Shown here: one piece after another, positions 15,620 through 40,097 of the stretch
How positions within the stretch are numbered: the first letter of the stretch is position 1
Layout of the letters: every line of letters begins with the position of its first letter
Assembly (NCBI GenBank): GCA_033763455.1
Contig: JANRKO010000008.1
Span: 1 to 64,000 of the forward strand
DNA: 64,000 nt
Direction of reading: 5' to 3'
Origin: Polyangiaceae bacterium
Lineage (GTDB): Bacteria; Myxococcota_A; Polyangia; Polyangiales; Polyangiaceae
The notes under the pieces: generated by a model
What the model was told of the DNA's origin: nothing
Databases searched by the model: none
The model's input: only the letters and a program-made list of their open reading frames with translations
Position numbers and translations under genes: made by a program

Positions 15620-15630
15620 ACGGCTCGGGT

Positions 15631-23276: not shown

Positions 23277-24260
23277 TCAGTGGCCTTTTGGCGCTGGCTC
23301 GTCGGTAGCGTTCACCTCGGCCGGAGCATTTGCAGTTGGGGCCGCTCCGCTCAGAGCGGCCAGGCTGCGTGAAGCTCGCTCCGCGTAGATCGGGTCCTTA
23401 GCAAGCGCTTCAAAATAGCGTCGCGCGCGATCCAAATCCCCAGCTTGGCTGTAACAGGTGCCCGCCTCCCAGCCGGCGATGCTACCATTCCTGCCACCCG
23501 GATCTTGGGCATAAACCCGCTCAAAACGCTCAACGGCCGCCGCACAGCCCCGGCCTTTAAGGTCTGACTGCGCGGCCAACAGAGCCGCCTCCGAGGCACG
23601 CGGTCCACCTTCTGCCGCTACGCGGTCGAACAGCTCAGTAGCTTCCAGAAAGTGGTGATCGCGAAAGGCGCGCTCCGCGAGAACGAAGGATTGGTCCGTT
23701 GCCTCTCCCACGATGCCGCCAGGGGCGCCGGCTGCTTGCTTCGTCCCATCGCGCGGGTCCGATGGGCTCGAAACTCCGTGTGCCCGTTGTTGGTCATCGA
23801 CCAAAGCGGGGGCTCCCGTGTGTGGCTTTTGTGTTTGAGCTGGTGAGGCGATTTCACTTTCTGGGATCCCCTTCTCAGTCACGTAAACGCTGTCTCGGTC
23901 TCCTGGGCGTGCACGTAGGAAAAGGAGGCTGGCACCAATCATCAGCAGAAAGAGCGCGCCCATACTCACCTGTGGTCGCATCGCATACCCGGCAGCAATG
24001 GACATCCAACGCCCCATGCGTTCGGCAAAGCCTTGCCCTCTGCGAGCGGTGTGTTCCTGCAGCAGGATCTGCTGGCCAAGCTCCGGAGGCGGGCTGAGCT
24101 GAATTAACTGGCCTGTTGTTTGAGCTGATTTTAATCGAGCGTACACTCCGTTGCAGCGCGAACAATGGCTAAGATGCTGTAGCGCCAAGCTGCGCGTCTG
24201 CTCCTCCACCTCATCGTAGAGAACGTCCAACGCAACTCGATCGAATTGTTCACAATCCAC
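23277..24260 (-). CDS. Membrane-anchored zinc-binding anti-sigma factor (zf-HC2/ZAS) with periplasmic TPR-like region
   Basis: MDC...HLSHCSRC (HxxxCxxC), one TM segment, C-terminal TPR-like helices. Lies downstream of an ECF sigma. Confidence 0.8.
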   Translation of the reverse strand: MDCEQFDRVALDVLYDEVEEQTRSLALQHLSHCSRCNGVYARLKSAQTTGQLIQLSPPPELGQQILLQEHTARRGQGFAERMGRWMSIAAGYAMRPQVSMGALFLLMIGASLLFLRARPGDRDSVYVTEKGIPESEIASPAQTQKPHTGAPALVDDQQRAHGVSSPSDPRDGTKQAAGAPGGIVGEATDQSFVLAERAFRDHHFLEATELFDRVAAEGGPRASEAALLAAQSDLKGRGCAAAVERFERVYAQDPGGRNGSIAGWEAGTCYSQAGDLDRARRYFEALAKDPIYAERASRSLAALSGAAPTANAPAEVNATDEPAPKGH

Positions 24261-24266
24261 GTGCAG

Positions 24267-24806
24267 TTAACCTTGAGATTGGTGCTCAGAGATCCGTTTG
24301 GAGCCTTCGCCAGACGACCGTCGTTCTTGGACCACTTTCTGAATCCCAAGTAACGCCTTTCGCATCCTCTCTTTCACTTCTTCGATGTCGGTGCCAATAA
24401 TGTCCGCGATTTGGGCGAACTGAAGCGAGGCTACCTGTTTTAAGAGGAATACCGTGCGTTGGCTGTCCGGGAGCGCTGCAACAATGGCAAGCGCCTCTTG
24501 GTGTTGGCGTTCGAGAGATTGCCCGGGAGTGGCTCGGCTTGGTCCTGCTGGTGTGCTCATCGCGAGGCGGTACAACCAGGTTGAGAACGGGCTTTGGTCC
24601 CTAAATTCGCCGGCGCGTCGCGCAAGCTCGGCGAACACCCGCAGCGTTAAGTCTCGAGCGAGGTTGGGGTCCGCTTCGATGTAATGTGCGACGGTGTAGA
24701 CCCCCGGTAGATGCCGCTGGACGAGCTCTTCGTACGCACCGAGATCCCCTCGTTGGTAGCGAACCATCAGGGCATTGTCTGAAGCGCGGCTGTTGGAGTC
24801 GTTCAT
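24267..24806 (-). CDS. ECF-type RNA polymerase sigma factor, divergent
   Basis: GDLGAYEELVQRH and FSTWLYRLA (region 2), LPDSQRTVFLL...IADIIG (region 4). Confidence 0.78.
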   Translation of the reverse strand: MNDSNSRASDNALMVRYQRGDLGAYEELVQRHLPGVYTVAHYIEADPNLARDLTLRVFAELARRAGEFRDQSPFSTWLYRLAMSTPAGPSRATPGQSLERQHQEALAIVAALPDSQRTVFLLKQVASLQFAQIADIIGTDIEEVKERMRKALLGIQKVVQERRSSGEGSKRISEHQSQG

Positions 24807-25149
24807 GTCCAGGTAGTTGGGCGCAAAATCATTGCCGTTCGGAAAATCGTGTAGCCTCCCCGCAGGCAACACGCTACCCAGCCTCTACCCGCCGGCCCCG
24901 CCCTGCGTTGGGCCGAGCCCCATGTATTTTGTCCGCGGATCCAAGGCGCTGACCCAGGAGCCGACGTCGGCTGTTGATCGCCGAGCCGGTTGCTCCGGTG
25001 GGGATCCGGGCGCTGAGCCGGAGCAAGCATCGATCCGTGGCTAGGGGGACCCGTAAAAAAATGGGGACTGAAAGGGCGGCTAGATGTAAGTTGAGGGTCG
25101 GCTGAATTTTGGCATTCGCCCAACGGTAAGATAGAGCAAGAGGGAAACG

Positions 25150-26079
25150 ATGCGATTCTTAAGCGCAGTTACGGTTCTAGCGATTTGTGTGCCCCAAGTA
25201 GCGTGGGCGCAAGCAACGGCTCCATCGCCGGAAAAATCCGGGGAGGCGGCGGCTGCAGGTGCATCGCCCTCGCCTGCGGCAGCGGGCCCGGCGGCAGCGC
25301 CTGCGTCCGAGGCGGTAGCGCCCGCACCGACAGCGGCGGGAGCGCCGGCAGCCACCGGGGAGGGCAGCTCCGGGTCCTCGGCGGCAAGCCCAACAGCCGC
25401 GGCGGCTCCTCAGGTAAAGGGTCCCACTGCGGTAGGTTCACCCACGCCCAGTGAAGGTGCGATGGATGGTGCCACTTATGCCGTACGTCTGCGAGACCTA
25501 GAGCAACGAATAGATGAGCTGAAGGAACAGATTCGGCGAAGTCATACGCGGCTAAGCTTGCTGAGCGACACGATCTTGTCTGGTGGCGTTGGCGGGGCTC
25601 GCGCGGAAATCAAGTTCGTCAACGAGATGAGCAACGCCTTCAGGCTAACAAGCGCACTGTTCGTGCTAGATGGCGCGGTGCAGTACAACAAGCAGGATGA
25701 TTCGGGTGCACTCGCGGAGCAGAAGGAGATCCCCATCTTCAACGGTGCGGTACCCTCCGGCGATCACACCCTACAAGTGGCCCTGAAGTTGCGCGGCCAC
25801 GGGTATGGGGTTTTCTCGTACCTTCGCGGCTACCAGTTTGACGCAAAGAGCAGCCATTCGTTCACCATCACTGAGGGCAAGACGGTGCAGGTTGAGGTGG
25901 TCGCGTACGAAAAGGGGGGCGTCACAACGCCGCTCGAGGAGCGTCCCGCGATTCGCTACGGGCAGAAGCTATCGAGTGGTGTTCAAGGCGACGGAGCTGC
26001 ACCTCAGGCTAGCTCGGGCGCTTCCATCACTCCAAAGAGTGCTTCCGGAAACATCAATCTCGGCACTGGAGGTAAGTGA
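25150..26079 (+). CDS. Exported protein with Ala/Pro-rich linker, coiled coil and beta-rich domain; first gene of the Glt-like cluster
   Basis: Signal peptide (…QVAWA), A/P/S-rich segment, and LRDLEQRIDELKEQIRRS coiled coil. Stop overlaps the next start. Confidence 0.75.
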   Translation: MRFLSAVTVLAICVPQVAWAQATAPSPEKSGEAAAAGASPSPAAAGPAAAPASEAVAPAPTAAGAPAATGEGSSGSSAASPTAAAAPQVKGPTAVGSPTPSEGAMDGATYAVRLRDLEQRIDELKEQIRRSHTRLSLLSDTILSGGVGGARAEIKFVNEMSNAFRLTSALFVLDGAVQYNKQDDSGALAEQKEIPIFNGAVPSGDHTLQVALKLRGHGYGVFSYLRGYQFDAKSSHSFTITEGKTVQVEVVAYEKGGVTTPLEERPAIRYGQKLSSGVQGDGAAPQASSGASITPKSASGNINLGTGGK

Positions 26080-28466
26080 TGAAATCCTTTGGCGCTCGGT
26101 CGCGAGCGCTCGGGGGCCTTTCGGCCCTCCTCACACTATTGGTGAGTTCTGGAGCGTCGGCACTGAATGCCTCCCAGGCGCAGGAAGTCGCGCGCGCCGG
26201 GCTAGCTGCGGCAGCAGCCCAGGCTCAACGCGGAGCTCCAGCACTGCGTTCCTCAGTCACGAGTCTCGCTCCAGCCGAGCGTGTTGCCGCTGGCGAGTTG
26301 ATGCTCCGAACGCGAGACTTTGATCGCGCAGCGGAGGAATTCAACAAAGTGCTCGAGCTGTTTCAGCAGGGCAAGGTTCCCGAAGCGACCTATGCCGACG
26401 CGCTGTTCTTGCTGGGTGAAACTTACCTCAAGTCGCAGCAGCACTTGTCCGCGCGCCGCTGTTACCAGCGGATCGTGGAGCAGGGGAGCCGGCGCCCATT
26501 TGATACTTACGCAGGGCGTGCACTCAGCCGTTTGGTTGATATCGCCTGGCGTCGCGAAGACAAAGAAGGTCTCGATTACATCTTTGCGCATATGGGGAGC
26601 CTGCCAGCCTCGGACGACACCGGCTCGGTGCAGTACGCTAGGGCGAAGGCTTTCTTCTTGCGCAAAGATTATGCTTCATCCAAAAGTTCCGTGGGCGGGT
26701 TACCGGCCACAAGTGAGTTCGCCCATCAGGCACAGTACTTACTTGGCGTTGTGCTGGCGAAGGAAGCCGCTGCCCAGCCAGTTGTTGGCCCGTCTATTGG
26801 GTCACCCACGAGTGGGGCTCCAGGCGCTTCGACTCGTTTTGCTCCCGCAATCGACCAATTTCGCCGGGTCACTCGCATGCCGGCCGATAGCGCTGCCCAT
26901 CGGCACGTGGTCGATCTTGCCTGGATGGCGATCGCCCGTTTGTTTTATGAGGGTGACAACTACACGGAAGCTGCCGAAGCATACGGCCACGTAGACCGCA
27001 CGTCTCCTGAGTTCTCGACGATGTTGTTTGAGCTCAGCTGGGTCTGGGTTCGGCTTGGGGACTACGAGCGTGCCCAGCGATCTTTGGAGGTGCTCTCCAT
27101 TACAGATCCGGGAAGCTTAAAGGTTGCCGATGGCGCCCTATTGCGTGCCGACTTGATGCTGCGCTCCGGGCAGTTCGATCGTGCCCTGGCAGCCTACGAG
27201 AGCGTGCGAGATCGCTTTGACCCACTCCGAGATCAGGTTGAGCGCTTCCTCACTTCCAATACAGACCCAGCCGTCTACTACGACAAGCTAACCGCTGAGG
27301 AGTTTGCCGCTGGGGGCGAGCTCTCTCCGTTGGTTCTTGACTGGGCGCGAGAAGAATCCACCAAAGACAACGTCTTTTCGGTGATCGACGATGTCACGCG
27401 CTCGCGAAGTATGTTGAAGCGAACCGGGCAGCTGGCGCAGAAGTTGCGAGGGGTTCTCAACTCAACCACTCGCGCCAAAGCTTTTCCTGAGCTTAAGGCC
27501 GCTCTGGAGCAAACGCTCGGCGCGCTCAACAAGATCGGGATGGCTCGCTATAACCTTGCGCTCGGCATGGATGATGTCGCGAGCGACAACGTAAGTGGGG
27601 AGCTTGCCACGGTTCGCCGCGAGCGCCGCGCTTTAATGCGTCGTGCGAGCTTTCTACCGGTCACTGATGGTGATTTTGCGCGCAGGGAAACCTTGGGAGA
27701 AGCTCAATGGACGGGCGCATCCCAGCAACTCCAACGCCTCACACTTGAGATCGACCGCCTTCGTGCCATCGTCAACGGCCTGCGTCGTGTGCTTCAAGAC
27801 AGCATGCGTGGAGTTTCCCAAGATCCTGCCACTCGTGACCGTTTTCGGGAGGAAATAGCTGCGAATGAGCGCGATTTGGAGGTCTACGAAACGCGTGTAA
27901 AAGGCTACCAAGAAGCCGTCGAAATGGGGCGGGCACAGATTGGGTTTGGTGACCAGCGCTACGTTGAGGATGACCAGGTGCGTTCGCAACTATCTCGGCT
28001 GTTTGAACAGGAAGTTGCGCTTGTTGCATCGGGTCAAGACCCCGATGCGGTGGATTACGCTCGGGCGATTTCCGGGATGCTTGCAGAGGCGCGATCCACC
28101 GAGAGTCAGCTAGCCGCGGTCCGCGGCCAATATGAACGCCAGGCTGAGGAAAGCTCCGTCAAGCTCATTGGTATCGTGAACGACGAAGCGAACAAGCTTG
28201 AGAACTACGCGATCAACCTTGAGGGGTTGGACCAACAGGCGCGGCTTTTGGTCGGTGAGGTGGCCATGAAGAACTTCGGGTTAGTGCGTGACCGCCTGAA
28301 GAACTTGGTGCTCAAGGCGAACGTTGGCATTGTTCAACAGGCCTGGGAGGTTCGCGAAGAGCAGCGCGTGCGAGTGAGAAACTTGCAGCGGGAACGGGCG
28401 CGTGAGGAGCAGAACTTGAACGACGAATTGAGAGAAGTGCTGGATGACGCGGAGGAGGAGCAGTGA
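26076..28466 (+). CDS. Periplasmic TPR/coiled-coil protein, GltC/NfsC-like
   Basis: Signal peptide, TPR motifs (ALFLLGETY, AQYLLG, MLFELSWVW) and a long coiled-coil C-terminus. Position precedes the D-E-F-G-like genes. Confidence 0.65.
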   Translation: MMKSFGARSRALGGLSALLTLLVSSGASALNASQAQEVARAGLAAAAAQAQRGAPALRSSVTSLAPAERVAAGELMLRTRDFDRAAEEFNKVLELFQQGKVPEATYADALFLLGETYLKSQQHLSARRCYQRIVEQGSRRPFDTYAGRALSRLVDIAWRREDKEGLDYIFAHMGSLPASDDTGSVQYARAKAFFLRKDYASSKSSVGGLPATSEFAHQAQYLLGVVLAKEAAAQPVVGPSIGSPTSGAPGASTRFAPAIDQFRRVTRMPADSAAHRHVVDLAWMAIARLFYEGDNYTEAAEAYGHVDRTSPEFSTMLFELSWVWVRLGDYERAQRSLEVLSITDPGSLKVADGALLRADLMLRSGQFDRALAAYESVRDRFDPLRDQVERFLTSNTDPAVYYDKLTAEEFAAGGELSPLVLDWAREESTKDNVFSVIDDVTRSRSMLKRTGQLAQKLRGVLNSTTRAKAFPELKAALEQTLGALNKIGMARYNLALGMDDVASDNVSGELATVRRERRALMRRASFLPVTDGDFARRETLGEAQWTGASQQLQRLTLEIDRLRAIVNGLRRVLQDSMRGVSQDPATRDRFREEIAANERDLEVYETRVKGYQEAVEMGRAQIGFGDQRYVEDDQVRSQLSRLFEQEVALVASGQDPDAVDYARAISGMLAEARSTESQLAAVRGQYERQAEESSVKLIGIVNDEANKLENYAINLEGLDQQARLLVGEVAMKNFGLVRDRLKNLVLKANVGIVQQAWEVREEQRVRVRNLQRERAREEQNLNDELREVLDDAEEEQ

Positions 28467-31400
28467 AACTCACTCGTTCTCGCGCTCTTGTGAGCGCACT
28501 TCCGCTTTTGACTCTCAGCTTGGTGGCTCTGCCATCCCTATCGCAGACCTCAGGTGCGCCAACTGCGCCCGCGGTGTCCCCATCGGCGTCGACCGGTGCT
28601 GCCTCTCCTTCGGCGAGTGCCACTGCGGCGCCTCTGCCGAGTGCTGCTCCGAGTGCGAGCGCCTCGGCGGAAAAACTACCGTCGGCCCCGTCGGCCCCGT
28701 CGGCTCCAGCGCCGGCAGAGGCACCCAAAGTTGTGGCTCCGGCAGTGCTAGCCAAGAAGGTGCCGCCGCCGCCGCCGCCAAGTCCGGCGCAACTACGGGC
28801 ATTCCAGGTTCTGCAGGGAGAAGCCGGCGCGTACGAGGCCTCGGCCAAGGAGTTTCGACAAACGCTCACTCAAATCGTGCGACACCATTATGAAGAGCGC
28901 CGTCGTCGTGTTCTGAGCGCGTTGGATGCCGAGATCACGAGCGAGAAGAAGTTGCTCGATTCCGCACGTGATGAGGCTATCGCGCGCCTTGAAAAGTTCG
29001 TGGCCCAATACTCCGGAGCGAATGCCCACGTTGAGGCCACCCCTGACGCCATGTTTAGGCTAGCTGCTCTGTACGAGGAGAGGGCCCGCTTGAAGTCCGA
29101 AGGCGAGCTCTCGGAGGCGTTGGAGCCGGCGGTCGCTTTGTATCGGAGAATCGTTGTCGAGTATCCGAAGTACAACGAGCTGGCAGCCGTTCACTATTAC
29201 CTCGGCCATGCGCTCACCGATGGTGCTAGGATTGAGGAAGGCCAGCAGGCGTGGAGAGCTTTGGTTTGCAACAATAAGTTCACGGTTCAGGATGACACCG
29301 CCAACGCTTCGAAAGTGAAGTTGCAACCGCTCGCGCAGGATCATGATCAGGCCTATTGGAACGAGTGGTACAATCAGCACCCTGTTCCGTTTGATCAGGC
29401 AGCAAGTGGTCGGAAGGCACGCTTTAAGGCCGAGTCCGACGAAGTTACCTATCAGGACCCGTACGCCGGTTGTGAGAGTATTCCGCAGCAAACAGAATCC
29501 GGAGAAGAGCCCCGCTACCTCGCAGAAATTTGGTGGCAGCTCGGCAACTTCCACTTTGACCAGATCGATCCTGCCGGTGGCCCTTACAACTTGAACCGAG
29601 CTGTTAGCGCCTACGAGCATTCGATGGCCTACAAGAAACCGCCCCTCTACGGCGTGGCCATGTACAAAAATGCGTGGGCGTTCTTCAAGCAGCAGCGGTA
29701 TCACACTGCCGTCAACGAATTTGCTAACCTGCTCCGATATGCGGACGAGCAGGAGGAAAAAACCGGTGATAAGGGCGCCGACTTCCGGAGTGAGGCGTAC
29801 ACCTACATCGCTGGCTCGTTGACCTACGTAGATTTTGAGGGCCCACCCGCGGACCACCCATACATCCCGCGGAGCGACGTGCTCGATACTGAGAGCAATC
29901 CTGTGGTGGCCGAGGAGAAGATGGGCATAGCGATCCAGCGGGTCCAGGACGCCTCGCTGATCCCACAGGATAAGAAATGGACGGTCGAGATCTATAAGGC
30001 CTTGGCCCAGGAGTTCATTGAGATCACCCAGAATCGCAATGCCATTTCGACCCTGGAGCTAACCCTGCGCAAGTTCCCGATGGATCGGGATGCTCCGGTT
30101 ATGCAGAACAAGGTTGCGGAGCTGTACGACCAGTTGGGGCGCCTTGCACCTGACGGTTCGGCTGCTCGCGCCGAGTACGCTCAGAAAGCACTTTCGGCTC
30201 GAACAGCGCTTGCTGCGTACGTTGGAGCGACGCCGTGGACGAACGCGAACCGGGATGATCCGGAAGCCTTGCAACAAGCAGAGGAACTCGTAAAGGGCGG
30301 CCTTCGTCGGGCCGCGGCAGACCACACGAACTTCGCTCGAACATATTACAACAAGGCAGTTGAGCTGAGTGACGTAGGTGAGCAGCGCCAGCTGATTGAA
30401 AAAGCGATCGCCGAGTATAGGCTCGCTGAGAGCGGCTGGGCGGCTTATTTAGCTCAAGATCCGAATGCTTCAGATGCGTACGAGAGCCAATTTTGGCTCG
30501 CGGATGCACGGTACTCAATCGTGGTGTTGCAAGTGGCCCTGGAGCGCTCGCCTACCGAACAGGAAGTGGCGGACGCGCGCCAGTCCGCTGTGGCCGTTAG
30601 GGACTCCAACGAAGACGATAAGTACTTGCAACCTGCGGCCTATTACGTCGTATCGCTCGCCGACAAAGTGTTGGATGACGAGGCGCGCAAGCATGAGCAG
30701 GGCGGAAAGCAGGGTATCGAAAGGCGCACAGAGGTGCGTTTCGAGGGAGAGGGGGAGGCTCGGCGGGTCGTTCGTGATGTGATCCCCCAGCCTGTGGTTA
30801 ACGCGATGTCGGCCCGAGACGAGTACAATGCGCGCATCGCGCCGGACCAAGATCCAGAGAAGAATGGGATGCTGTACGCCTTCCAGGTTGCCGACTGGTA
30901 CTTTGCGTATGGCCAGTTCGACAAAGCTCGGGAACGCTTTGTCCCACTCTACGAGCAGCACTGCGGTAAGGATGAGTGGGGTTACAAAGCGTGGGAGAAG
31001 CTCATCAGCATGAGCAACTTCGAAAATAACGCTGCCGAAAGTCGCCGACTCGCCGAGGGTAAGAGCTGCGCGTTCAACGAAGAGACTAAGGTGGCCGAGG
31101 AAAGCATTCGCAAACCCGTGAAGCAGGGCGTCGCGTACCTCGATGCAAGAAAGCTCTACGAAGAGGCCGAGAAGATGCCCGAAGGCCCGGCGCGCGACAA
31201 GAAGTGGCGGGAGGCTGCGGCCGCCTACAAAGTCGCACTCGATGCGGCGCCAGATCGGGATGAAGCTCCCGAAGCGGCCATGAACGGAGCCTTCGCTTAC
31301 AAGCAAGTTGGTGAGTACGACAAGGCGATTGGCATGTACGAGCTTTTCATCGCTCGCTACGGCAACAACAAGACGCTCACCAGCCTGCGTGATGGCGACC

Positions 31401-32683
31401 CGAACGGCAAGCCTCCGGTAAGCGCCGATCCCAAGAAGTATCAGGATCGCGTGGGGTACTTGAAGAACGCTTACGATGCCCTTGCCGGCGCCTACGTGTT
31501 GTTCTTCAACTATCCGAAGGCTGCTGGCACCTTCGATAAGATCAGTGACATTTCGCACTTCTCACGAGATGCGCGTCGAGAGTCTGCACGCCAGGCGCTT
31601 TCGCTCTACTCGAGCCTTGGGGACACAGGCGGAATGCGCAAATCTCGCGAGAATTTTAGGAGCCTTGGTGCTTCTGAAAAGGAACTCGCGGAGGCTGATT
31701 TTACGATCGCGTCTGCAGAGCTCAAACAGTGGGATCCTTTGAGCCCTGCGGATGGCACGAACAATACTGCTCGTCGCCGCGCCATGACGGCGATGGAAGC
31801 GTATTATACGCTGAACGCCTCGCGCCCTGCCGCCGCGCAATTCGTAGTGCAGGCCGCGTATTGGTCGGCCAAGGCCCGCCATTCGGGTAAGGCCGATGAC
31901 ACCAACAAGTGGTGGCAGAAGACCATCGAGGCCTTCGAGAAGTGGAAGCCGACGGCGGAGGTCAAAGGTGGTCAAAGCGTGGCTCTGGGTTCCAAGGAGG
32001 CCGGCATGGCAGCCGAGGCGGAGTTCACCATGTTGGATGAGCAAATCGGCGTTAACTTCGACTACGAGACCGGGCACCACCGTTACAAGGGAACGCCGGT
32101 AGAAGTCATTGCGAGCTACCAGAAAGACGCGCTTGACGCCAAGAAGTACTACGACAAGTTGCAGCGCGTTATTGATAACTACGTTTCCCCCGAGTGGACG
32201 GTAGCCGCAATTTCCCGCCAGGGCTCACTCTACGACTCGCTCCGCACGGGTCTCTACAATACACGTCCGCCAGCTCTCCAAATGTTCGACAAGAAACAGG
32301 AGGCAATGCTGAAGCGGGCTGAGGAAAGCGATAATCCCGACCTCCAGGAAAAGGCGGATGCCGTACGCGTCAAGGTGCAGCAGTCGTGGAGGGATAGGCG
32401 TGATCAGGAGTTGGACGGTGCCGATCAGATCATGGTGGATCGCTACGGCAACACGGTGGTGTTGGCACGACGCTACAACGTCTCAAGCGTTGCCGTGACG
32501 CGAGCTATTCGGCGCTTGGCTTTCTTCACCGATATCATCGGCGAAGCGAAGATGAAGCAGCACAGCGGCAACGTGAAGGATCTCAACTACACAGATGGTA
32601 TGTTCCCTAAGATGCGACCTGGCCAAGTTACGGCGCCCGCACCCAAGGGCATGCCTGAACCCCTACCGGTATACGTCCAATGA
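28463..32683 (+). CDS. Large periplasmic TPR protein, GltD/AgmU/NfsD-like
   Basis: 1406 aa with a signal peptide and many TPRs (PDAMFRLAALY, HYYLG, AMYKNAWAFF, DFRSEA). Confidence 0.72.
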   Translation: MKLTRSRALVSALPLLTLSLVALPSLSQTSGAPTAPAVSPSASTGAASPSASATAAPLPSAAPSASASAEKLPSAPSAPSAPAPAEAPKVVAPAVLAKKVPPPPPPSPAQLRAFQVLQGEAGAYEASAKEFRQTLTQIVRHHYEERRRRVLSALDAEITSEKKLLDSARDEAIARLEKFVAQYSGANAHVEATPDAMFRLAALYEERARLKSEGELSEALEPAVALYRRIVVEYPKYNELAAVHYYLGHALTDGARIEEGQQAWRALVCNNKFTVQDDTANASKVKLQPLAQDHDQAYWNEWYNQHPVPFDQAASGRKARFKAESDEVTYQDPYAGCESIPQQTESGEEPRYLAEIWWQLGNFHFDQIDPAGGPYNLNRAVSAYEHSMAYKKPPLYGVAMYKNAWAFFKQQRYHTAVNEFANLLRYADEQEEKTGDKGADFRSEAYTYIAGSLTYVDFEGPPADHPYIPRSDVLDTESNPVVAEEKMGIAIQRVQDASLIPQDKKWTVEIYKALAQEFIEITQNRNAISTLELTLRKFPMDRDAPVMQNKVAELYDQLGRLAPDGSAARAEYAQKALSARTALAAYVGATPWTNANRDDPEALQQAEELVKGGLRRAAADHTNFARTYYNKAVELSDVGEQRQLIEKAIAEYRLAESGWAAYLAQDPNASDAYESQFWLADARYSIVVLQVALERSPTEQEVADARQSAVAVRDSNEDDKYLQPAAYYVVSLADKVLDDEARKHEQGGKQGIERRTEVRFEGEGEARRVVRDVIPQPVVNAMSARDEYNARIAPDQDPEKNGMLYAFQVADWYFAYGQFDKARERFVPLYEQHCGKDEWGYKAWEKLISMSNFENNAAESRRLAEGKSCAFNEETKVAEESIRKPVKQGVAYLDARKLYEEAEKMPEGPARDKKWREAAAAYKVALDAAPDRDEAPEAAMNGAFAYKQVGEYDKAIGMYELFIARYGNNKTLTSLRDGDPNGKPPVSADPKKYQDRVGYLKNAYDALAGAYVLFFNYPKAAGTFDKISDISHFSRDARRESARQALSLYSSLGDTGGMRKSRENFRSLGASEKELAEADFTIASAELKQWDPLSPADGTNNTARRRAMTAMEAYYTLNASRPAAAQFVVQAAYWSAKARHSGKADDTNKWWQKTIEAFEKWKPTAEVKGGQSVALGSKEAGMAAEAEFTMLDEQIGVNFDYETGHHRYKGTPVEVIASYQKDALDAKKYYDKLQRVIDNYVSPEWTVAAISRQGSLYDSLRTGLYNTRPPALQMFDKKQEAMLKRAEESDNPDLQEKADAVRVKVQQSWRDRRDQELDGADQIMVDRYGNTVVLARRYNVSSVAVTRAIRRLAFFTDIIGEAKMKQHSGNVKDLNYTDGMFPKMRPGQVTAPAPKGMPEPLPVYVQ

Positions 32684-34149
32684 TGGGTGAAATAGCCAGA
32701 ACGCTTCCAAAGGTGAACGCCCGCAATCGCGCGTGGCGTTCGGTGGAGCGTGCGTTCCTTGTGATTCTCCTCGCGGGGCTCGCCGTAGGTTGCGCCAAGA
32801 AGGGGGTCGGCGTGGGGCCCCAGGTAGCACCTGGTCAGCCGCCGCCGGTGCCGGGTGCTCCAGTGATGGGGCCACAAGGTCAGCAGTTTGCCGTTTCGGA
32901 CGCACCAACGGGCGGTCCGAGCGCTGTGGAGCGGCCGAAGATGAATGCGGCTGCCGCTCAGGCCTATGCAGCTGGATTGAGCGCCTTTCAAGCTGGAGAT
33001 CTTGCGGGCGCGCAGCTCCAATTCACGAGCGCTACTCAAGCAGATCCACGAGCGTTTCAGGCTTTTTATTCACTTGGAACGGTAAGGGAAAGGCTTTCAA
33101 ATCGCGCTGGCGCCATTTCCGCTTATCGGCAAGCGCTCGCCATCGTGCGGGATTACGAGCCTGCCCTGGTAGGGGTAGCGTTGGCTCAGGCACAGGGTGG
33201 GCAGGAGGCGGAGGCGGAGGCCTTCCTCCAGTCCGCGCGCGCCCAATTCCCGAGTAGCGCGGCTGTGCTCGCGGCATTGGCTGAGGTGAAATCTATCTTG
33301 GGTGATTCTGGTGAGGCACAGAAGCTCGCGCAGGAAGCCCTCAAGAAAAATCCCGACTATCGCCCGGCGATGGTGACGTTGGCTCGCGACCACTACCGCC
33401 GACGTCGGCTGGATTTGGCGTTGTACGCTCTCAAGGGGATTCTTGATGGTTATGGCGACGAAAACCCAGCGCGGGACAAGAACAACGCGGTCGCCCGCCT
33501 CCTGCGTGGACTGATTTACAAGGAGCAAGGCCAGAAAGCTCCCGCGATTGATGAGTTTCGCAAGGCCCTAGAGCTCCGCCCGGATCTCGTTGAGGCACGT
33601 GTGCAGCTCGCTGCGTACCTGCTTGAAGCTGGCAACGCCGTGGACGCGTTGCCACTTCTCGAAGGGGCTCTGCGGTACGACAGTAACAACGTTCTTGCTC
33701 ACTTGAATCTTGGGGATGCGTATCGGCTTCTTGGTCGCCCTCAGGATGCCAAGCGTGAGCTTGAATGGGTCGCAAAGAAGGACCCTTCGCTTCCCCAGGT
33801 GCACTACAATCTTGGGCTGCTATATCTCTTTTCCGATAACATTCCCGGCGTTAGCGCCGAGCAGGCGTCGGACATGGCGATCGATGCACTCCAGAAGTTT
33901 CAGCAGATGAGGCCGCGTGGCGGCGGCGGACGTGCCGACGACACCGAGGAGTTGATCACTCGAGCCAAGACCAAGAAGGCTTTGATCGAGGCACAAAAGG
34001 CCGACGCCGCAGCAGCGAGTGCCCCCGAAGCGGCACCTGCGGCAGGCGCCCCAGCCGCCCCGGCCCCAGCAGCGGGCGCGACGCCCGCACCTGCGGCCCC
34101 CGCGGGAGCCGCAGCGTTTCCCACAGCACCCGAAGGAGCAGCAAAGTGA
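32680..34149 (+). CDS. TPR lipoprotein, GltE/AglT/NfsE-like
   Basis: Lipobox LAVGC, consecutive TPRs (AHLNLGDAYR, VHYNLGLLYL) and an Ala/Pro tail. Confidence 0.75.
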   Translation: MMGEIARTLPKVNARNRAWRSVERAFLVILLAGLAVGCAKKGVGVGPQVAPGQPPPVPGAPVMGPQGQQFAVSDAPTGGPSAVERPKMNAAAAQAYAAGLSAFQAGDLAGAQLQFTSATQADPRAFQAFYSLGTVRERLSNRAGAISAYRQALAIVRDYEPALVGVALAQAQGGQEAEAEAFLQSARAQFPSSAAVLAALAEVKSILGDSGEAQKLAQEALKKNPDYRPAMVTLARDHYRRRRLDLALYALKGILDGYGDENPARDKNNAVARLLRGLIYKEQGQKAPAIDEFRKALELRPDLVEARVQLAAYLLEAGNAVDALPLLEGALRYDSNNVLAHLNLGDAYRLLGRPQDAKRELEWVAKKDPSLPQVHYNLGLLYLFSDNIPGVSAEQASDMAIDALQKFQQMRPRGGGGRADDTEELITRAKTKKALIEAQKADAAAASAPEAAPAAGAPAAPAPAAGATPAPAAPAGAAAFPTAPEGAAK

Positions 34150-34388
34150 CCAGAGGTTTCTACGTTGTTGGTTTAGGAGTCTTGGGCTTGTTGCTGTTCC
34201 CCGGCGGCGCGAGTGCACAAGGAAAGAGTCGCGTCGTGACAATTAGCGAAGTTACGATTGTTGGTCGCGTGCAGAAACCGATCGCTGCTGTTGATGTGAG
34301 CAGGATTCAGCCGAAGCTGACGCTGGCAGAGCTCAAGCAGCCCTTTTTAGAGCGGATAGAAGAAGCCTTGTATTCGGAGCCGTTCTGA
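34146..34388 (+). CDS. Small exported protein, GltF/CglF/NfsF-like
   Basis: 80 aa with a signal peptide, TIVGRVQKP motif and C-terminal F..RI...PF. Sits between the TPR lipoprotein and the TonB-like gene. Confidence 0.68.
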   Translation: MTRGFYVVGLGVLGLLLFPGGASAQGKSRVVTISEVTIVGRVQKPIAAVDVSRIQPKLTLAELKQPFLERIEEALYSEPF

Positions 34389-34417
34389 GTTCTCGATTTC
34401 ACTGAGCCGCGTCGGGG

Positions 34418-34984
34418 TTGTCGGAAGTGATAGCCGCAACCGTGAGTTCACTGTGTGCCTTGGCTGCGCTTGCATTTTCGATTCGTAGTGTACGTCTTCT
34501 TGATGTGGCGGACGGAGCGGAGGAAGTTGCTCTGCTGCTAAGAAGAAACACCGGCAGCGCTTCAACGGCTCTAGGGGCTCGCGTGGGCGAAGCGGCAGAG
34601 TTAGCGGTTCGTGTGCTCCAGGCGCCTACGTCCGAAGTTGCTCGCGCCGAATTACGCGAGGCCCTCTTAGGGGTGGCCGCGCTTAAGCACCTGAGGCAAT
34701 TACCCAAAGCCGGAGGTCGCGTTGGGCTTACCGTAGGCACGCTTGGAGCAGTTATCGAAATCGCCCAAGGGCTCCCCGACCTCGGGGGTCCGACGATCTG
34801 GGCGAGCGTGGCATTTGGCACCGGCCTTTGTGTGTGGATGGCCTCCAACATGGTGGGCCAGAGGGCGCAGACAGCGTTGCACGCACGCCTTCGTGCGTGG
34901 TCCGAACTACATCGTGTTTTGGAGATCCATATATCGGGCCAATGGCCGGAAAATTTACCCCGCAACAACAGCCCCCAGGCATAG
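34418..34984 (+). CDS. Membrane protein, possibly a highly divergent MotA/TolQ/ExbB (AglR-like) protein
   Basis: Three hydrophobic segments. LP...GLTVGTLGAVI and AFGTGLCVW resemble TolQ/ExbB TM2 and TM3. Confidence 0.45.
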   Translation: MSEVIAATVSSLCALAALAFSIRSVRLLDVADGAEEVALLLRRNTGSASTALGARVGEAAELAVRVLQAPTSEVARAELREALLGVAALKHLRQLPKAGGRVGLTVGTLGAVIEIAQGLPDLGGPTIWASVAFGTGLCVWMASNMVGQRAQTALHARLRAWSELHRVLEIHISGQWPENLPRNNSPQA

Positions 34985-35120
34985 TGGATTCTTCTACCCT
35001 GCCTCGGTATCCTTCCCGGCTAGCCAGACCTCCGGCTAAGGCGGGGCCCACTTTGGGCCGTCATGAAGCAGTCAGCACGCCCTTTCTCGGTCACGACCAT
35101 TTCGAACTGTGAGTTGAAGA

Positions 35121-36524
35121 ATGACGCAACCCCCCAATCAACAGCCAGGCTCGCCCCAACAACGCCCCGGACAAATGACCGCGGTCATGCGAGCCGTTGC
35201 CGCATCGGGTCCAAAGGTGCTTCGCATCGGCATGGTCCACCGCGGAAGGGTCGTCGAAGAGCGCATCATCAAACAGCGTGGCCACGTTACGGTGGGGCCG
35301 AGCGAAAAGAACGTGTTCGTGGTTGCCGCTCCGAACATAGCAGCAAGCTTTCGCTTGTTTGAGATCGTCGGCACTGATTACTGCTTGAATTTCACCGAGG
35401 GGATGAGCGGCCGTGTTGCGCTGCCCACAGGTATCTCGGACCTCGCAGCGCTGAAAGGCCAAGCAAAAAAGGGAGCTCAAGGTGCCTACCAGATCCGCCT
35501 CACGGAGGATTCTCGAGGCAAGGTTGTCGTTGGTGACACCACCTTTCTTTTTCAATTCGTTGCTCCTCCACCGATTCAACCAAAGCCACAGCTGCCAGTG
35601 GCGGTTACGCGCGGCACGAGTTCGATCGACTGGGGCACCACGATCATTGCAGCGTTTTCTTTTCTGCTTCACTTCCTCGCCATAGGCTCGCTCTATTCCG
35701 ACTGGCTCGATCCTGTCATCGACGACGAAGTGAACGTGGCAAGCCTGATCGATTCGGTCAAAGCCCTACCGCCGCCTCCACCCGTGGAGGAGAAGCCCGC
35801 GGAAACCACCGACGCGAAAGATACGAAAGCACCAGAGGAGAAGGCTCCAGCAAAGCCTTCGCCGCAGCAGAGCTCTGATAAGCCTGCGGGTAAGCTCAGT
35901 GAGAAGCAGGCCGCGGCTCTGACGCAGGATCTAGATCAACTCGAGATGGCCACCCTCGGGGCTCTTACTAGCGCGGGGCCTGCTACCGCGGGCGTGCTTC
36001 GTGCCGGGGAAGTCGCGACGAGCGCACTCGATCAAGCCGCTGCGAGTAGCGCTGGCGTTGGTGCGAGCGGGGGAGATCTTAAGATCGGTGGAGGTGGGGG
36101 CGCTCTGCGGCCGGGTCAGACTGGGGGCGGTCTCGGTAGCATCGGTGCAACAACCGCCGGTGGCGGCGGAACGGGTAAGGCAGCTGCCGTATCGGGTCCG
36201 AAGGGGAATGCGTCGGTGGGCGGGGCCAATGTTAGTGGAGGTAGTGTGAGCAATGCGGCCCGAACCGTTGCGGGGATGCGCGCTGGTTTCCGGGCTTGCT
36301 ATCAGCGAGGTCTCAGCGAAAACCCTGACGCCTCCGGCAGCATTGGTCTCACGATTCGTGTCGGACCCGGTGGAGAAGTTATCAGCGTATCCGCGAAGCC
36401 ATCCGGAACCATCCCTGCGTCGGTGGTGGCCTGTGTTCAATCACGCGCCAAATCCGCCCAGTTCTCACCTCCTGACGGCGGCTCAGCCGTAGTCGTCGTG
36501 CCCGTGACATTTGTGAAGCAGTAA
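35121..36524 (+). CDS. GltG/PglI-like TonB/TolA-type energy transducer (AgmX/PglI C-terminal domain)
   Basis: Cytoplasmic beta domain, TM with SFLLH (SxxxH TonB motif), Pro- and Gly-rich linker, and C-terminal FRACYQRGL..NP...G.V...CV...F..P....VVVPVTF. Confidence 0.82.
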   Translation: MTQPPNQQPGSPQQRPGQMTAVMRAVAASGPKVLRIGMVHRGRVVEERIIKQRGHVTVGPSEKNVFVVAAPNIAASFRLFEIVGTDYCLNFTEGMSGRVALPTGISDLAALKGQAKKGAQGAYQIRLTEDSRGKVVVGDTTFLFQFVAPPPIQPKPQLPVAVTRGTSSIDWGTTIIAAFSFLLHFLAIGSLYSDWLDPVIDDEVNVASLIDSVKALPPPPPVEEKPAETTDAKDTKAPEEKAPAKPSPQQSSDKPAGKLSEKQAAALTQDLDQLEMATLGALTSAGPATAGVLRAGEVATSALDQAAASSAGVGASGGDLKIGGGGGALRPGQTGGGLGSIGATTAGGGGTGKAAAVSGPKGNASVGGANVSGGSVSNAARTVAGMRAGFRACYQRGLSENPDASGSIGLTIRVGPGGEVISVSAKPSGTIPASVVACVQSRAKSAQFSPPDGGSAVVVVPVTFVKQ

Positions 36525-36715
36525 TAAGTAGGTGAGTTACTGAATGGATCAGGCCCTGCGAGCACCCGAACATGAATGCCCCGTGGCTCGTTGGCTCGTC
36601 GGCTCGCGCCCTGGTTCGGTCCTTACTCGGCCGCCGATACGGAAGATTGTCCACGGCTCGACGAACTCAAGGTTCCGGCCGGCCGTCGTTTCAGTAAGAA
36701 TCCTCAAGGGTTACG

Positions 36716-36745
36716 TTGACAGCCGTTTGTTCAGTTTCCTATACT
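36716..36745 (+). promoter_or_regulatory. Near-consensus sigma70 promoter
   Basis: TTGACA (36716-36721), 18-bp spacer, TATACT (36740-36745), 37 bp upstream of the ATG at 36783. Confidence 0.7.
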
Positions 36746-36782
36746 TTCAATTGTTCATCGTTAGGGTGTAAGGCAGAGGTGT

Positions 36783-37376
36783 ATGGGCAAAGCGCATAAG
36801 GGTTGGTCGTTTGGGTTGGGGGTTTCGGCTGTGCTCGTCCTTGGGGGCGCGTCCGCGCAATCCGCGCTGGCGCCGCATCCCGTGCTTCCCCAGGCTAGCG
36901 TCCGGGCATCGGCCCCGGATGCTGACCTTACACCTGAGCAAATGATGAGCGAAGCGAACGGGTACTTCCCGCAGATGGATCAAGGAGCTTCCAGCGTCCG
37001 GCGTCAGCTCAGTACCGCTCGCGAGCAGCGCGATGTGGTCAAGGTCCTATGTCTTAACGACAAGTTAACGCAAATCAATGTTGCCGTACGCTCGGCTCAG
37101 GATCGTGGCACTTCACTGAGAGCGGCTGTGTCGCGTGGCGATAAAGAACGTTCCCGGCATGAGTTCACTGTGCTGAAGGTGCTTAAGGATCGCGTCCGCA
37201 CCTTGGTTTCGGAATCCAATCAGTGCATTGGGGAAGAAGTCGGGTTTGTCGGCGAGTCTAATGTGACCGCCAATATTGATCCCAACATTCCCGACATCGA
37301 CCCGGGGGGACCCGGGATGTCGGGCGGCGCAATCCCAACCCCACCAACGCCAGTTGTCAGTAGCCCCATTCAGTAG
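36783..37376 (+). CDS. Exported helical hypothetical protein with a Cys pair and Pro-rich tail
   Basis: Signal peptide, amphipathic helices, and VLCLNDKL...NQCIGEE. Confidence 0.75.
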   Translation: MGKAHKGWSFGLGVSAVLVLGGASAQSALAPHPVLPQASVRASAPDADLTPEQMMSEANGYFPQMDQGASSVRRQLSTAREQRDVVKVLCLNDKLTQINVAVRSAQDRGTSLRAAVSRGDKERSRHEFTVLKVLKDRVRTLVSESNQCIGEEVGFVGESNVTANIDPNIPDIDPGGPGMSGGAIPTPPTPVVSSPIQ

Positions 37377-37414
37377 TTCTCCTTTGACTAGAGGCCGGCT
37401 GGCCTCACGGAATC

Positions 37415-38770
37415 ATGAAGTACTTTCTTGTCCTCGCGGCAGTTCTTGCTGCAGCAACAACCCTTGAGCAGGCATCCGCACAGCAGCCGTGGATTGCGGA
37501 TCGCCGCTATGGGGAGGGCATTGGGATTCGCACCGGAGATCTTGAGGTGCATCCCGGTATTTCGGGTGAGTTCGGGTATGATTCCAACTATTTCCAGCGC
37601 GCACCGGAAGAAGATGTCACCGGCGCCTTGCGCTTGCGAATCTCTCCCCACTTGAACTTGTCCACGCTCGGGGCCCAGCGGCGCGGGGCTGGTGGTGGTA
37701 CTGGGGCCCCGCCGACTGTTAGCTTTCAGGGCGGCCTTTCTGCTTCGTACAACGAGTTTTTCGCGACCGACTCCAAGTATTCGAGCGATGTATCCCAACA
37801 GAGAAACCTCGAGGGTGGAGCCAATCTGAAGTTGGATATCCTGCCGGAGCGTCCGTGGGGCGGGGACATTCACGCGGGTTTTACGCGCGCAGTTGACCCA
37901 TCAAATTCTGCGATTCTTGATAGTTCGTTCGATCGGGATACGTTGGTGGTGGGCCCCGGGGTGAGCTGGCGCCCGGGCGGCGGCATGTTCGAGTGGCGCT
38001 TTGGCTACCGGTACACGTACAACATGTTTGAGCGTCAGGCCTACAAGAACCTGAACAACTCAATTCACCAGCTTGAAACCAGCGGTCGCTGGCGATTCTT
38101 TCCGCGCACAGCCGTTCTCTATGATGGGCATTATGCGTTTGCGAATTACGCCAACTCGACAACGCAGAACAACAGCGAATCGCTTCGCGCTCGGATGGGT
38201 CTCAACGGGCTCATTACGAACCGGTTCTCGTTGATGGGCATGCTCGGTTGGGCCCAGAGCTACTATGAACGAACCGTTGCGCCTCCGCAGAATTACGACA
38301 ACTTGATCGCCGTGGGGGAGCTCAGGTGGTTCCTATTGCCGCGCGCCACACTAGATCCGACCGCTGCCACGATTGGCCTTTCCTCGATTGCAGCGGGCTA
38401 CACGCGCGATTTTCGCGGCAGCTATCTCGGTGATTTTTCGCAGACCGATCGCGGTTATCTCTCGGTGGAGTACTTTGCTGCCGGCACGGTGCTGCTGTCG
38501 CTCCAGGGGGGCGTCGCGCAGGTGGGTTACCCTCAGAGCTTTGGTCCAGGCGGCGCTCCGCTTAACGCCTCGTTCTCTGAAACTCGGGTGGATGCAAGCT
38601 TGTTCGGTGAATACCGCTTGAGCGATTCCATAGCAGTCAACGGTACCCTACGGTACGACGCCAACCTTTCTGACTCCCGGGTGCGTACCAGCCTCACAGA
38701 CCCTAACGCTACGGATAATCTCAAGTTTAGTCGTTTGCAGGCGTGGGCTGGCTTGCGCTGGTTCATGTAG
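37415..38770 (+). CDS. Outer-membrane beta-barrel, Wzp/EpsX/ExoB-type polysaccharide secretion porin
   Basis: Signal peptide, N-terminal HPGISGEFGYDSN motif, many amphipathic strands and an aromatic C-terminus (AGLRWFM). Directly precedes an OPX gene. Confidence 0.75.
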   Translation: MKYFLVLAAVLAAATTLEQASAQQPWIADRRYGEGIGIRTGDLEVHPGISGEFGYDSNYFQRAPEEDVTGALRLRISPHLNLSTLGAQRRGAGGGTGAPPTVSFQGGLSASYNEFFATDSKYSSDVSQQRNLEGGANLKLDILPERPWGGDIHAGFTRAVDPSNSAILDSSFDRDTLVVGPGVSWRPGGGMFEWRFGYRYTYNMFERQAYKNLNNSIHQLETSGRWRFFPRTAVLYDGHYAFANYANSTTQNNSESLRARMGLNGLITNRFSLMGMLGWAQSYYERTVAPPQNYDNLIAVGELRWFLLPRATLDPTAATIGLSSIAAGYTRDFRGSYLGDFSQTDRGYLSVEYFAAGTVLLSLQGGVAQVGYPQSFGPGGAPLNASFSETRVDASLFGEYRLSDSIAVNGTLRYDANLSDSRVRTSLTDPNATDNLKFSRLQAWAGLRWFM

Positions 38771-38829
38771 CGATAGTTCTTGGGCCAAGCGCTCCCGTTC
38801 TGGGGCACTATCTGCTACGAGAGGCTTTG

Positions 38830-39435
38830 ATGTCGCTCTTCTTCCAGCGTCTACTGATCTGTACGCTATGCCTTCTAAGTTGCGCTGTCGGGTGTTCTGC
38901 TCACTCGGATAACGCAAGCGTCCGCCTGCCCGATCCCGTCGAGAGCTCAACGCTTGGGCCAGGGGACGTATTTCGGATGGAAATCGTCGGGGAGAAGGAT
39001 TTGCCTCAGGAGTACCAAGTGGCCTCCGACGGCAGCGTTGATCTGCCCTACCTCCACACCGTCATGGTCAGCGGATTGGAGCCACAAGTGGTGGCACGTT
39101 TGGTTCGTAAGCTTCTCATTGAGCAGAAGTTTCTGACGGATCCGAGCGTCATCGTTTCGGTGAAGGAATACAACAGCAAACGGGTTACGGTGCTAGGTCA
39201 GGTCCAAAAGCCTGGAAGCTTTCCGCTTACGCCTGGGCTCACTCTCATCCAGGCCATCTCGTTGGCTGGCGGCTTCAATTCCATTGCCGCGGGTGATCAG
39301 GTGAATCTTACTCGCAAGACCAAGTCTGGGTCGAAAACAGTGGTCGTTAGCATCGACGCCATCACGGACGGCCGGGCACAGGATATTCCGCTTCAAGCGA
39401 GCGACCAGATATTCGTGCGCGAGCGTGTTTTCTAA
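38830..39435 (+). CDS. wza: Short polysaccharide export protein (OPX/Wza-like; Poly_export + SLBB, no C-terminal OM helix)
   Basis: Lipobox AVGC, LGPGDVF...VASDGSVDLPYL and VTVLGQVQKPG...LIQAISLAGG. Ends at DQIFVRERVF. Confidence 0.9.
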   Translation: MSLFFQRLLICTLCLLSCAVGCSAHSDNASVRLPDPVESSTLGPGDVFRMEIVGEKDLPQEYQVASDGSVDLPYLHTVMVSGLEPQVVARLVRKLLIEQKFLTDPSVIVSVKEYNSKRVTVLGQVQKPGSFPLTPGLTLIQAISLAGGFNSIAAGDQVNLTRKTKSGSKTVVVSIDAITDGRAQDIPLQASDQIFVRERVF

Positions 39436-39476: not shown

Positions 39477-40097
39477 GTGGTGTTGATCTCAGACCAATTC
39501 CCTCTCCTGCTTGGCTCAGCCTCGCCTCGGCGTCGCGATCTGCTTTCAGGGTTGGGGCTGCCAATTCGCGTTTTCCCTCGTGACATCGACGAATCCGTGC
39601 GGGCTGGAGAGGGAGCGATGGCTTATTTGGAGCGTATCGTAGAAGCCAAGCAGGTCGCCGTTTGGAATGAGTTCAGCACTGAGCCTGAGCCGCCTTTTAC
39701 AGCGATCCTAGTGGCGGACACCGTGGTGGTGCTGGATGAGCAAATCCTGGGTAAGCCCACCGACATAGCGCACGCTTTTTTGCTTCTACAGAAACTTGCG
39801 GGCAGAACGCACCGAGTCATGACTCGTTTCGTGCTTCGCGATCGAAACCCCCTGGGCCCGAAAATCGGGCACACCGTGACCACTGAAGTAACGCTCGCCA
39901 ATCCCGGTGAAACTTGCCTCCGGCGCTACGCAGCGACCGGAGAGGGGCTCGACAAAGCTGGAGCTTATGCGGCGCAGGGCATCGGTGCTTTTTTGGTGGA
40001 GCGCCTGGTCGGTTCCTACACGAACGTTGTGGGCCTGCCAGTGAGCCACGTCGTTGAGGCATTGGTGAGTGCTGGCTGGTTGAAAGATTTCCCGTGA
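39477..40097 (+). CDS. maf: Maf family nucleoside triphosphate pyrophosphatase
   Basis: LGSASPRRRDLL, ADTVV, ILGKP, DKAGAYAAQG and SYTNVVGLP motifs. Confidence 0.93.
   Translation: MVLISDQFPLLLGSASPRRRDLLSGLGLPIRVFPRDIDESVRAGEGAMAYLERIVEAKQVAVWNEFSTEPEPPFTAILVADTVVVLDEQILGKPTDIAHAFLLLQKLAGRTHRVMTRFVLRDRNPLGPKIGHTVTTEVTLANPGETCLRRYAATGEGLDKAGAYAAQGIGAFLVERLVGSYTNVVGLPVSHVVEALVSAGWLKDFP

Follow-up and report, generated by a model that had tools for sequence, protein, structure and literature searches.

A Glt paralogue cluster beside a Wzp-OPX polysaccharide exporter in a Polyangiaceae bacterium: orthology to Myxococcus xanthus G4 and wzpB-wzaB, and a probable M2-type motor

Why do the genes of a Glt-type trans-envelope machine lie directly beside those of a polysaccharide exporter? 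The question is raised by ten genes at positions 25150 to 39435 of a 64,000-nucleotide stretch of DNA from a Polyangiaceae bacterium (the window: positions 1 to 64,000 of contig JANRKO010000008.1, assembly GCA_033763455.1), which an earlier note, made from the letters alone, had described as a Glt/Nfs-like machine physically joined to a Wzp beta-barrel and a short OPX protein. Judged by sequence, the locus is the orthologue of Myxococcus xanthus MXAN_1924-1915, that is, of the Glt paralogue cluster G4 plus the exporter genes wzpB-wzaB, and the linkage of this Glt paralogue to wzp-opx is conserved across a sample of the phylum. The word 'joined' holds at the level of the genes only. All ten open reading frames are in place on the plus strand, each neighbouring pair among the first five overlaps by 4 nt, as the note had it, and for every gene the codon score of its own frame beats those of the five other frames, orf6 being the weakest; the observation is real.

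The first part of the locus runs from orf1 (25150..26079, 309 aa) through gltC (26076..28466, 796 aa), encoding a TPR scaffold with a long helical C-terminal part, gltD (28463..32683, 1406 aa), the TPR lipoprotein gene gltE (32680..34149, 489 aa), gltF (34146..34388, 80 aa), whose product has a beta-strand and a C-terminal helix conserved in a family listing of 70 loci, and orf6 (34418..34984, 188 aa, start codon uncertain), to gltG (35121..36524, 467 aa), whose product is read as a cytoplasmic beta domain, a transmembrane helix near residues 173-191 and a TonB-like C-domain. Pfam gave no match for orf1, gltF, orf6 or, further on, orf8. The NCBIfam matches of the recognisable proteins are distant: GltC reaches 58 bits on NF033756 (E 5.6e-16) against a gliding equivalog cut-off of 450, GltG 94 bits (E 8.2e-27) against 650, and the match of GltE to NF033758 (E 1.8e-27) is far under the gliding cut-off, while the AgmX/PglI TonB-like C-domain of GltG scores above its own family cut-off. 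The N-terminal canonical FHA domain of gliding GltG is missing from the window protein, and family searches of the stretch gave no match pointing to a GltA, B, H or K gene, in agreement with the note. The gene order gltC-D-E-F-G, free of A, B, H, I, J and K, is that of G4.

For a direct comparison, Myxococcus loci were retrieved with the published MXAN_1922 primer (PMC3169522), because the phylum sample described below is nearly devoid of Myxococcaceae-like gliding GltC. Eleven records matched, four of them labelled through the OPX gene and one more to the barrel, the other six ending at contig edges. Those long enough read mglB-mglA-orf1-gltC-D-E-F-G-cNMP gene-orf8-barrel-OPX, in the order and with the lengths of MXAN_1926-1915. 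The simple open-reading-frame caller missed GltE in three loci (L113, L114 and L116) and the OPX in a fourth (L121), so profile or tblastn matches were used where important. One record (L113, BNCN01000011.1) is titled Comamonas sp. and bears a Myxococcus-type mglA-G4-wzpB-wzaB locus; its gene lengths are also like those of Myxococcus, and it is probably a mislabelled or mixed assembly. The cNMP-binding-domain gene (148 aa in L114 and L119, at the MXAN_1918 position between gltG and orf8) suggests possible nucleotide regulation.

Window proteins were searched against 24 paralogues of Myxococcus sp. Y35, a set without WzpX/S-type barrels, and back against the 28,727 open reading frames of the window genome, with GltE taken from L119 and the other Myxococcus reference proteins from L114. 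Eight of the nine common genes are reciprocal best hits, the ninth, GltF, giving a forward match only (E 0.001). GltC scores 169 bits against Myxococcus G4 GltC and 32 against gliding or Nfs GltC. GltE is ambiguous by similarity alone (86 bits to G4 GltE, 80 to gliding GltE) and is taken as the MXAN_1921 orthologue by position. In a GltD tree of 19 rows, 15 G4-type proteins, the window's included, separate from gliding, Nfs and G5 proteins at 100/100, a split that is unaffected by the long branches through which the gliding GltD of the window genome joins G5. On this evidence the window genes gltC, D, E, F and G correspond to MXAN_1923, 1922, 1921, 1920 and 1919, and form a distinct Glt paralogue, as the note had proposed; its caveat that the locus might simply be the orthologue of the M. 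xanthus wzpB-wzaB region proved correct, with the Glt half falling on a cluster already published.

That cluster was named G4 by Luciano et al. 2011 (PMC3169522), as five genes, MXAN_1919-1923, of function then unknown; the published list, as far as the source was available, leaves out MXAN_1924, MXAN_1917, the barrel and the OPX, and does not assign the M2 motor to G4. M. xanthus gltC-D-E-F-G follow the same order as in the window, with lengths of 809/1111/490/91/447 aa against 796/1406/489/80/467, and the Sorangium counterpart in their Table S3, sce5940-5945, has 802/1431/449/82/511. After gltG the two differ, Myxococcus having the cNMP-binding gene; its motor slot is empty, whereas that of the window holds a decayed aglR.

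Could these nonetheless be the gliding gltC-G of this organism? They do share homology with the GltC, GltE and GltG families, and the best match of gliding GltE in the window genome is the window GltE. Against this, contig C6 carries a separate gliding-type cluster (GltC 568, GltD 1240, GltE 556, GltF 92 and FHA-bearing GltG 670 aa, plus a gene of 3790 aa, the size of GltI), in which gliding GltC, D and G have their reciprocal matches. With the separation in the GltD tree, this refutes a gliding identity at the level of orthology, and we regard it as scarcely credible; the window set lacks both GltC/GltG orthology to the gliding system G1/G2/M1 and an FHA domain on GltG. Nor does it belong to Agl-Nfs, since its genes are not orthologues of NfsC, D or G and no NfsA/B/H barrels accompany them. 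Agl-Glt and Agl-Nfs share with G4 the C-D-E-F-G core and, probably, a TolQR-type motor. They differ in their GltA/B/H barrels, FHA-bearing GltG and M1 motor, and do not adjoin their exporter, whereas G4 lacks A, B, H, I, J and K and has orf1 and an adjacent exporter. Of these relatives, Nfs acts on a secreted polysaccharide, that of the spore coat.

The exporter half consists of orf8 (36783..37376, 197 aa), a barrel gene (37415..38770, 451 aa) and an OPX gene (38830..39435, 201 aa). The barrel has a weak sequence match to outer-membrane barrel families; its predicted structure (pLDDT 86.7, pTM 0.83) has 18 long strands by our count and resembles outer-membrane porins, among them PgaA (4y25) and AlgE. 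The longest reading frame of the OPX gene begins at 38743 (230 aa), and the ATG at 38830 yields a lipobox signal. The product is short, ends in Val-Phe and matches Poly_export and SLBB, with no match to the Wza C-terminal family in Pfam. A short OPX without an outer-membrane helix beside an 18-strand barrel is the composition of a Class-3 (D1D2) OPX/Wzp composite translocon, as the note had recognised. Both proteins are reciprocal best hits of the M. xanthus exporter for the ManNAcA-rich biosurfactant polysaccharide (BPS), whose genes Saidi et al. 2022 (PMC9603273) give as wzpB (MXAN_1916) and wzaB (MXAN_1915); on the barrel profile, WzpX/S-type barrels reach 7-8 bits. The M. xanthus exporter shares the 18-strand barrel, the short lipoprotein OPX with a hydrophobic-Phe end, and a location apart from the Wzx/Wzy cluster and from the fused-kinase Wzc, which in the window genome lies in a cluster on contig C47. 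A difference is that the window protein has Thr-Asp at the aligned place where WzaB carries its twin-Arg motif for binding Wzc; the window exporter is assigned to the BPS type by its genes.

How firmly are the two halves linked? When 151 genomes of the phylum (the window's own included, Myxococcaceae under-represented) were scanned with orf1 and barrel profiles, both were found in 115 and neither in 33, with orf1 alone in two and the barrel alone in one, each at a contig end. One genome (G001) was counted among the 33 because its weak orf1 match marks another paralogue cluster. The two were colinear on one contig in 82 genomes, rearranged in six (family f17) and on different contigs in 27; among the 22 of these last that were fetched, gltG directly precedes orf8-barrel in 12, the locus ends at a contig edge in three and the halves are truly separate in seven. 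Altogether 94 of the 115 are linked and 13 truly split, with eight assignable to neither class. The linkage is kept across 26 families, between which protein identity is about 20-30%, so the conserved synteny that the note asked for is present. Gliding-type GltC occurs in 122 of the 151 genomes, above the cut-off in one. Five genomes from three families lack both halves while keeping it, and family f25 (20 genomes) has both halves in 12, neither in seven and the barrel only in one. No statistic is claimed, owing to the kinship of the genomes.

A second survey covered the window and 80 chosen loci (the 40 best GltD matches and 40 picked to represent many families), of which 74 hold gltD, gltG and the barrel. 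The OPX follows the barrel directly in 56 of these, and in the other 18 the Glt core and the barrel stand together but no OPX adjoins them; in four families a close OPX homologue is missing or only divergent ones occur elsewhere. One could read this as a barrel and orf8 that are primarily the outer-membrane module of G4, a stand-in for GltA/B/H, with the OPX attached secondarily and a non-OPX cargo in some lineages. That reading is improbable, given the 56 loci with a directly following OPX, the fact that on splitting the orf8-barrel pair goes with the OPX and not with the Glt genes, and the report that WzpB exports BPS (Mellouk 2026, PMC12819527). Flanks vary, with 21 upstream clusters in the 74 loci (largest 16) and 19 downstream clusters in 71 (largest 33, by single linkage), and in several genomes Wzc or sugar-modifying genes lie downstream of the locus.

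Within the locus the ten genes are probably arranged as two transcription units, the second starting at orf8. A sigma-70-like site with an 11/12 match lies before orf8 at 36716..36745, on the plus strand, and sites matching at 10/12 or better recur in this gap in 20 of 72 loci and in none of 92 coding controls, a contrast that is overstated since coding DNA has a higher G+C content than intergenic DNA; in five Myxococcaceae-type loci the score is 9/12. This promoter-like site appears, from the sequences compared, to mark the usual break point of the locus. RNA reads mapped to a related Myxococcus-type locus (three samples of one study) give a strong stranded signal on mglBA that ends before orf1, and over G4-wzp-wza a depth that is flat and almost without strand bias. 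Four supplements of one Cappable-seq paper contained none of the six locus tags sought.

The separate promoter-like site lends some weight to the view that only neighbourhood is involved, G4/M2 serving another cargo and orf8-wzp-opx being an independent unit kept beside it. Clean splits at or near the boundary in 13 genomes, related core clusters and further paralogues with no wzp nearby, mutants with no reported phenotype (PMC3169522 and PMC3858216, in the parts available) and a downstream flank cluster that, by single linkage, also reaches 33 of 71 loci all point the same way. We consider this a real but minority possibility, because the junction is kept in so many families at such low protein identity, despite the promoter-like site of orf8 and the variable flanks, and because both halves are lost together where gliding-type GltC is kept and both retained where the locus is split.

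If G4 is a machine of its own, what drives it? In 42 of the 74 loci, from 16 families, an intact aglRQS set (ExbB-ExbD-ExbD) lies between gltF and gltG. A single, fast-diverging gene of the orf6 type occupies this slot in 13 loci (five families, all in the window's taxonomic order), the slot is empty in 18 and partial in one. The note had called orf6 TolQ-like, a label that did not survive as a description of a working protein: there is no Pfam MotA/ExbB match, the channel threonine motifs are lost and no ExbD partners lie in cis. A profile of 12 homologues from the slot, the window's excluded, retrieves 12 of 12 in-operon AglR proteins (E 1.4e-7 to 4e-3) and finds window orf6 itself at E 0.034 among 1618 open reading frames; the converse comparisons are weaker, the AglR profile giving E 0.11 or worse on slot proteins and hhalign of the orf6 family with AglR a probability of 5% (E 0.007). 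Because of the reverse profile and its position, orf6 is read from sequence as a decayed aglR remnant, not a working motor. One further locus (L089, flipped 11552-12244 and 15387-16028) carries a near-identical aglR duplicate after gltG.

The window genome has two aglRQS sets, both on contig C45, and none intact in the window locus. The M1-type and M2-type sets are divergently adjacent there (C45:4480-9216); in Sorangium the 2011 paper (PMC3169522) lists six consecutive motor genes, sce2991-2996. Myxococcus sp. Y35 also has two sets, M1 being called from lengths and M2 by elimination, and Wartel 2013 (PMC3858216) gives M2 (MXAN_3003-3005) as the only other complete set. The plus-strand C45 set is sister to M2 (100/99), and the two nest among the in-operon motors (97/89 in the AglR tree, 100/98 with R, Q and S concatenated), while M1 and the minus-strand set form a separate pair. 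By this topology the M2-type motor is a descendant of in-operon G4 motors, and since M2 nests among motors encoded inside G4 loci it is probably the motor of G4, the M2-type set on C45 probably taking this part here. The channel Thr and Asp residues of the detached C45 motor are kept. M2 was published as an orphan, dispensable for motility and sporulation, and MXAN_3003 was reported to bind neither GltG nor NfsG (PMC3858216), which fits a third partner; the passages available report no binding to MXAN_1919.

Two further proteins seem to belong to the system. The orf1 product, the MXAN_1924 orthologue, is exported and is modelled (pLDDT 81) as a long helix and a beta-sandwich, for which fold searches gave nothing at E 0.001 (best Z 9.1, generic beta-sandwiches below). 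Distant homologues (28-47 bits, against at most 3.6 for 400 shuffles) directly precede gltC in orf1-C-D-E-aglRQS-G clusters of other groups and in further paralogue clusters, and we read orf1 as an unrecognised core subunit that heads Agl-Glt core clusters. Some orf1-gltCDE(F)G paralogue clusters, in families f7, f8 and f10 (L183, L184, L185 and L181), have no Wzp barrel nearby, and one locus (L101) has a tandem duplicate of orf1. The orf8 product, the MXAN_1917 orthologue, is an exported helical protein with two conserved Cys residues and a C-terminal PPxxSP motif. It is the companion of the barrel and travels with it, adjoining it in 10 of 11 fetched genomes with a split locus; Islam 2020 (PMC7310880), in tabulating the BPS cluster, lists MXAN_1917 simply as hypothetical. 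Both proteins match only unnamed Myxococcota clusters in the ESM Atlas, where a 'dihydrolipoamide acetyltransferase' label was rejected for want of Pfam support. The window genome also has a second, stand-alone orf8 paralogue (C19:114606-115340, 44% identity over 116 aa), convergent to genes for a 429-aa lipoprotein-like and a 411-aa TPR-like protein.

What, then, might such a machine do at an exporter? The reading we favour, at roughly an even chance, is that G4/M2 stands to the BPS-type exporter as Nfs does to the spore coat: it would place or move the exporter or its polymer, and would not power export. The M2-type AglRQS proton channel, encoded here on C45, would drive GltG, whose TonB-like domain would pull on GltF, GltD and GltC as modelled for gliding, with orf1 as a structural partner to GltC. 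At the outer membrane the Wzp barrel would take the place of GltA/B/H, contacted either directly or by way of orf8, and the machine would position, move or tension the Wzp-OPX translocon or the polymer as it emerges. Its role would be accessory to export, of which Wzc-Wza-Wzp is itself capable. In the gliding model of Attia 2025 (PMC11761067), GltF bridges the TonB-like domain of GltG to GltC, and GltC docks under outer-membrane barrels. The G4 GltF keeps its strand and helix, and with no GltA/B/H present the locus has Wzp as its sole barrel, which argues for coupling; Nfs is a precedent for a Glt-type machine acting on a secreted polysaccharide (PMC3858216). The reading also draws on the conserved linkage and the joint absence of the two halves, on the motors encoded inside the locus, on the 18 loci whose barrel and Glt core stay side by side though no OPX adjoins, and on the Wzc or sugar-modifying genes downstream in several genomes.

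A more active version would have G4/M2 energise export itself, the proton-motive force opening the Wzp gate or pulling polymer in the manner of TonB. It draws on the TonB-like domain of GltG, on the complete motor inside 42 of 74 loci and on the simulations of Franca 2024 (PMC10955716), in which the Wzp loops are closed at rest and a trigger is called for, so that gating keeps its place as a rival. We consider it unlikely, because WzcB, WzaB and WzpB are described as joining directly into a tripartite translocon whose force is put down to the phosphorylation cycle of Wzc (PMC12819527), because the regions fetched around the two remaining Myxococcus OPX genes show no orf1- or orf8-like neighbour, and because polar gltD-G4 and MXAN_3004 mutants have no reported motility defect in the sources as available, although loss of BPS impairs swarming. 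Thus, of the note's proposal that proton-motive force is coupled to secretion or deposition, the secretion part is disfavoured.

Several points also weigh against an accessory, Nfs-like role. The polar MXAN_1922 mutant and the MXAN_3004 deletion showed no appreciable motility defect, judged qualitatively (PMC3169522), and MXAN_3004 is unneeded for sporulation (PMC3858216), whereas strains lacking BPS are clearly impaired in swarming on soft agar (Islam 2020, PMC7310880); any role must be subtle. With the promoter-like site before orf8, a polar MXAN_1922 insertion need not silence wzpB-wzaB. Little room is left for GltC at the periplasmic loops of WzpB, where the WzaB octamer sits (PMC12819527). 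The motor has gone from the locus in 31 of 74 cases and the detached C45 motor has a long branch, while the 13 truly split loci include all fetched members of f17, in which the Glt unit ends at gltF. Nor are related genomes independent, and a single deletion can take out neighbouring genes at once. In f17 (G074, G028 and G009), GltG-like genes of 490-670 aa occur elsewhere in 4-6 copies, often as tandem pairs.

Other genes around the locus may bear on its setting. Divergent from orf1, on the minus strand (23277-24872), lie genes for an ECF (extracytoplasmic function) sigma factor and an anti-sigma-like membrane protein with TPRs, a possible regulator of the Glt unit; this upstream flank is common to 12 loci, mostly of the window's order. 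PMT_2-type membrane glycosyltransferase genes stand on both sides (20451-22658 and 40094-41542). In 16 loci from several families (L072-L087, L090, L099) a gene of 500-570 aa precedes orf1; by sequence reading alone it looks like a D-Ala-D-Ala carboxypeptidase (DacB), which would place wall remodelling beside a trans-envelope machine.

Both halves of the locus are published, and what is new is the architecture-level inference that joins G4, M2 and the BPS-type exporter. In the literature searched, which included few subscription papers, no publication was found joining G4 to wzpB-wzaB or to M2, and only the 2011 paper uses the G4 locus tags. 'Glt' is absent from the main text of Saidi 2022 (PMC9603273) and of Mellouk 2026 (PMC12819527), Schwabe 2022 (PMC9601211) has Glt merely as a control strain in the part available, and the passages available of two preprints (10.64898/2026.08.28.747804 and 10.64898/2026.09.26.754727) do not mention G4. 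Relative to that literature, the phylum-wide linkage, the probable M2-G4 pairing, orf1 as a core subunit and orf8 as companion of the barrel are new.

The papers of 2011 and 2013 did not settle what G4 and M2 do, and later dissections of the BPS exporter do not mention the Glt genes that lie three loci upstream of it. If the two halves are joined, the orphan motor gains a probable partner and the orphan transducer a candidate substrate, while MXAN_1924 and MXAN_1917 come forward as conserved proteins still to be characterised, and since MXAN_1915-1924 and MXAN_3003-3005 belong to a genetically tractable organism, specific tests can follow. A bolder possibility, which we hold tentatively and with more doubt than belief, is that G4 is a third, phylum-wide and perhaps the oldest myxobacterial Agl-Glt machine. 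In this unit of 12-13 genes (orf1-gltCDEF-aglRQS-gltG-orf8-wzp-opx), a dedicated proton motor, M2, would be linked mechanically by way of GltG/F/C and orf8 to an exporter of the Class-3 OPX/barrel type, and the secretion or deposition of a Wzx/Wzy polysaccharide would thereby be controlled by the motor. If the coupling were true, a proton-motive-force motor would act on a Wzx/Wzy export pore, with a bearing on the origin of gliding: gliding and the winding of the spore coat would be sister specialisations of a polysaccharide-handling motor.

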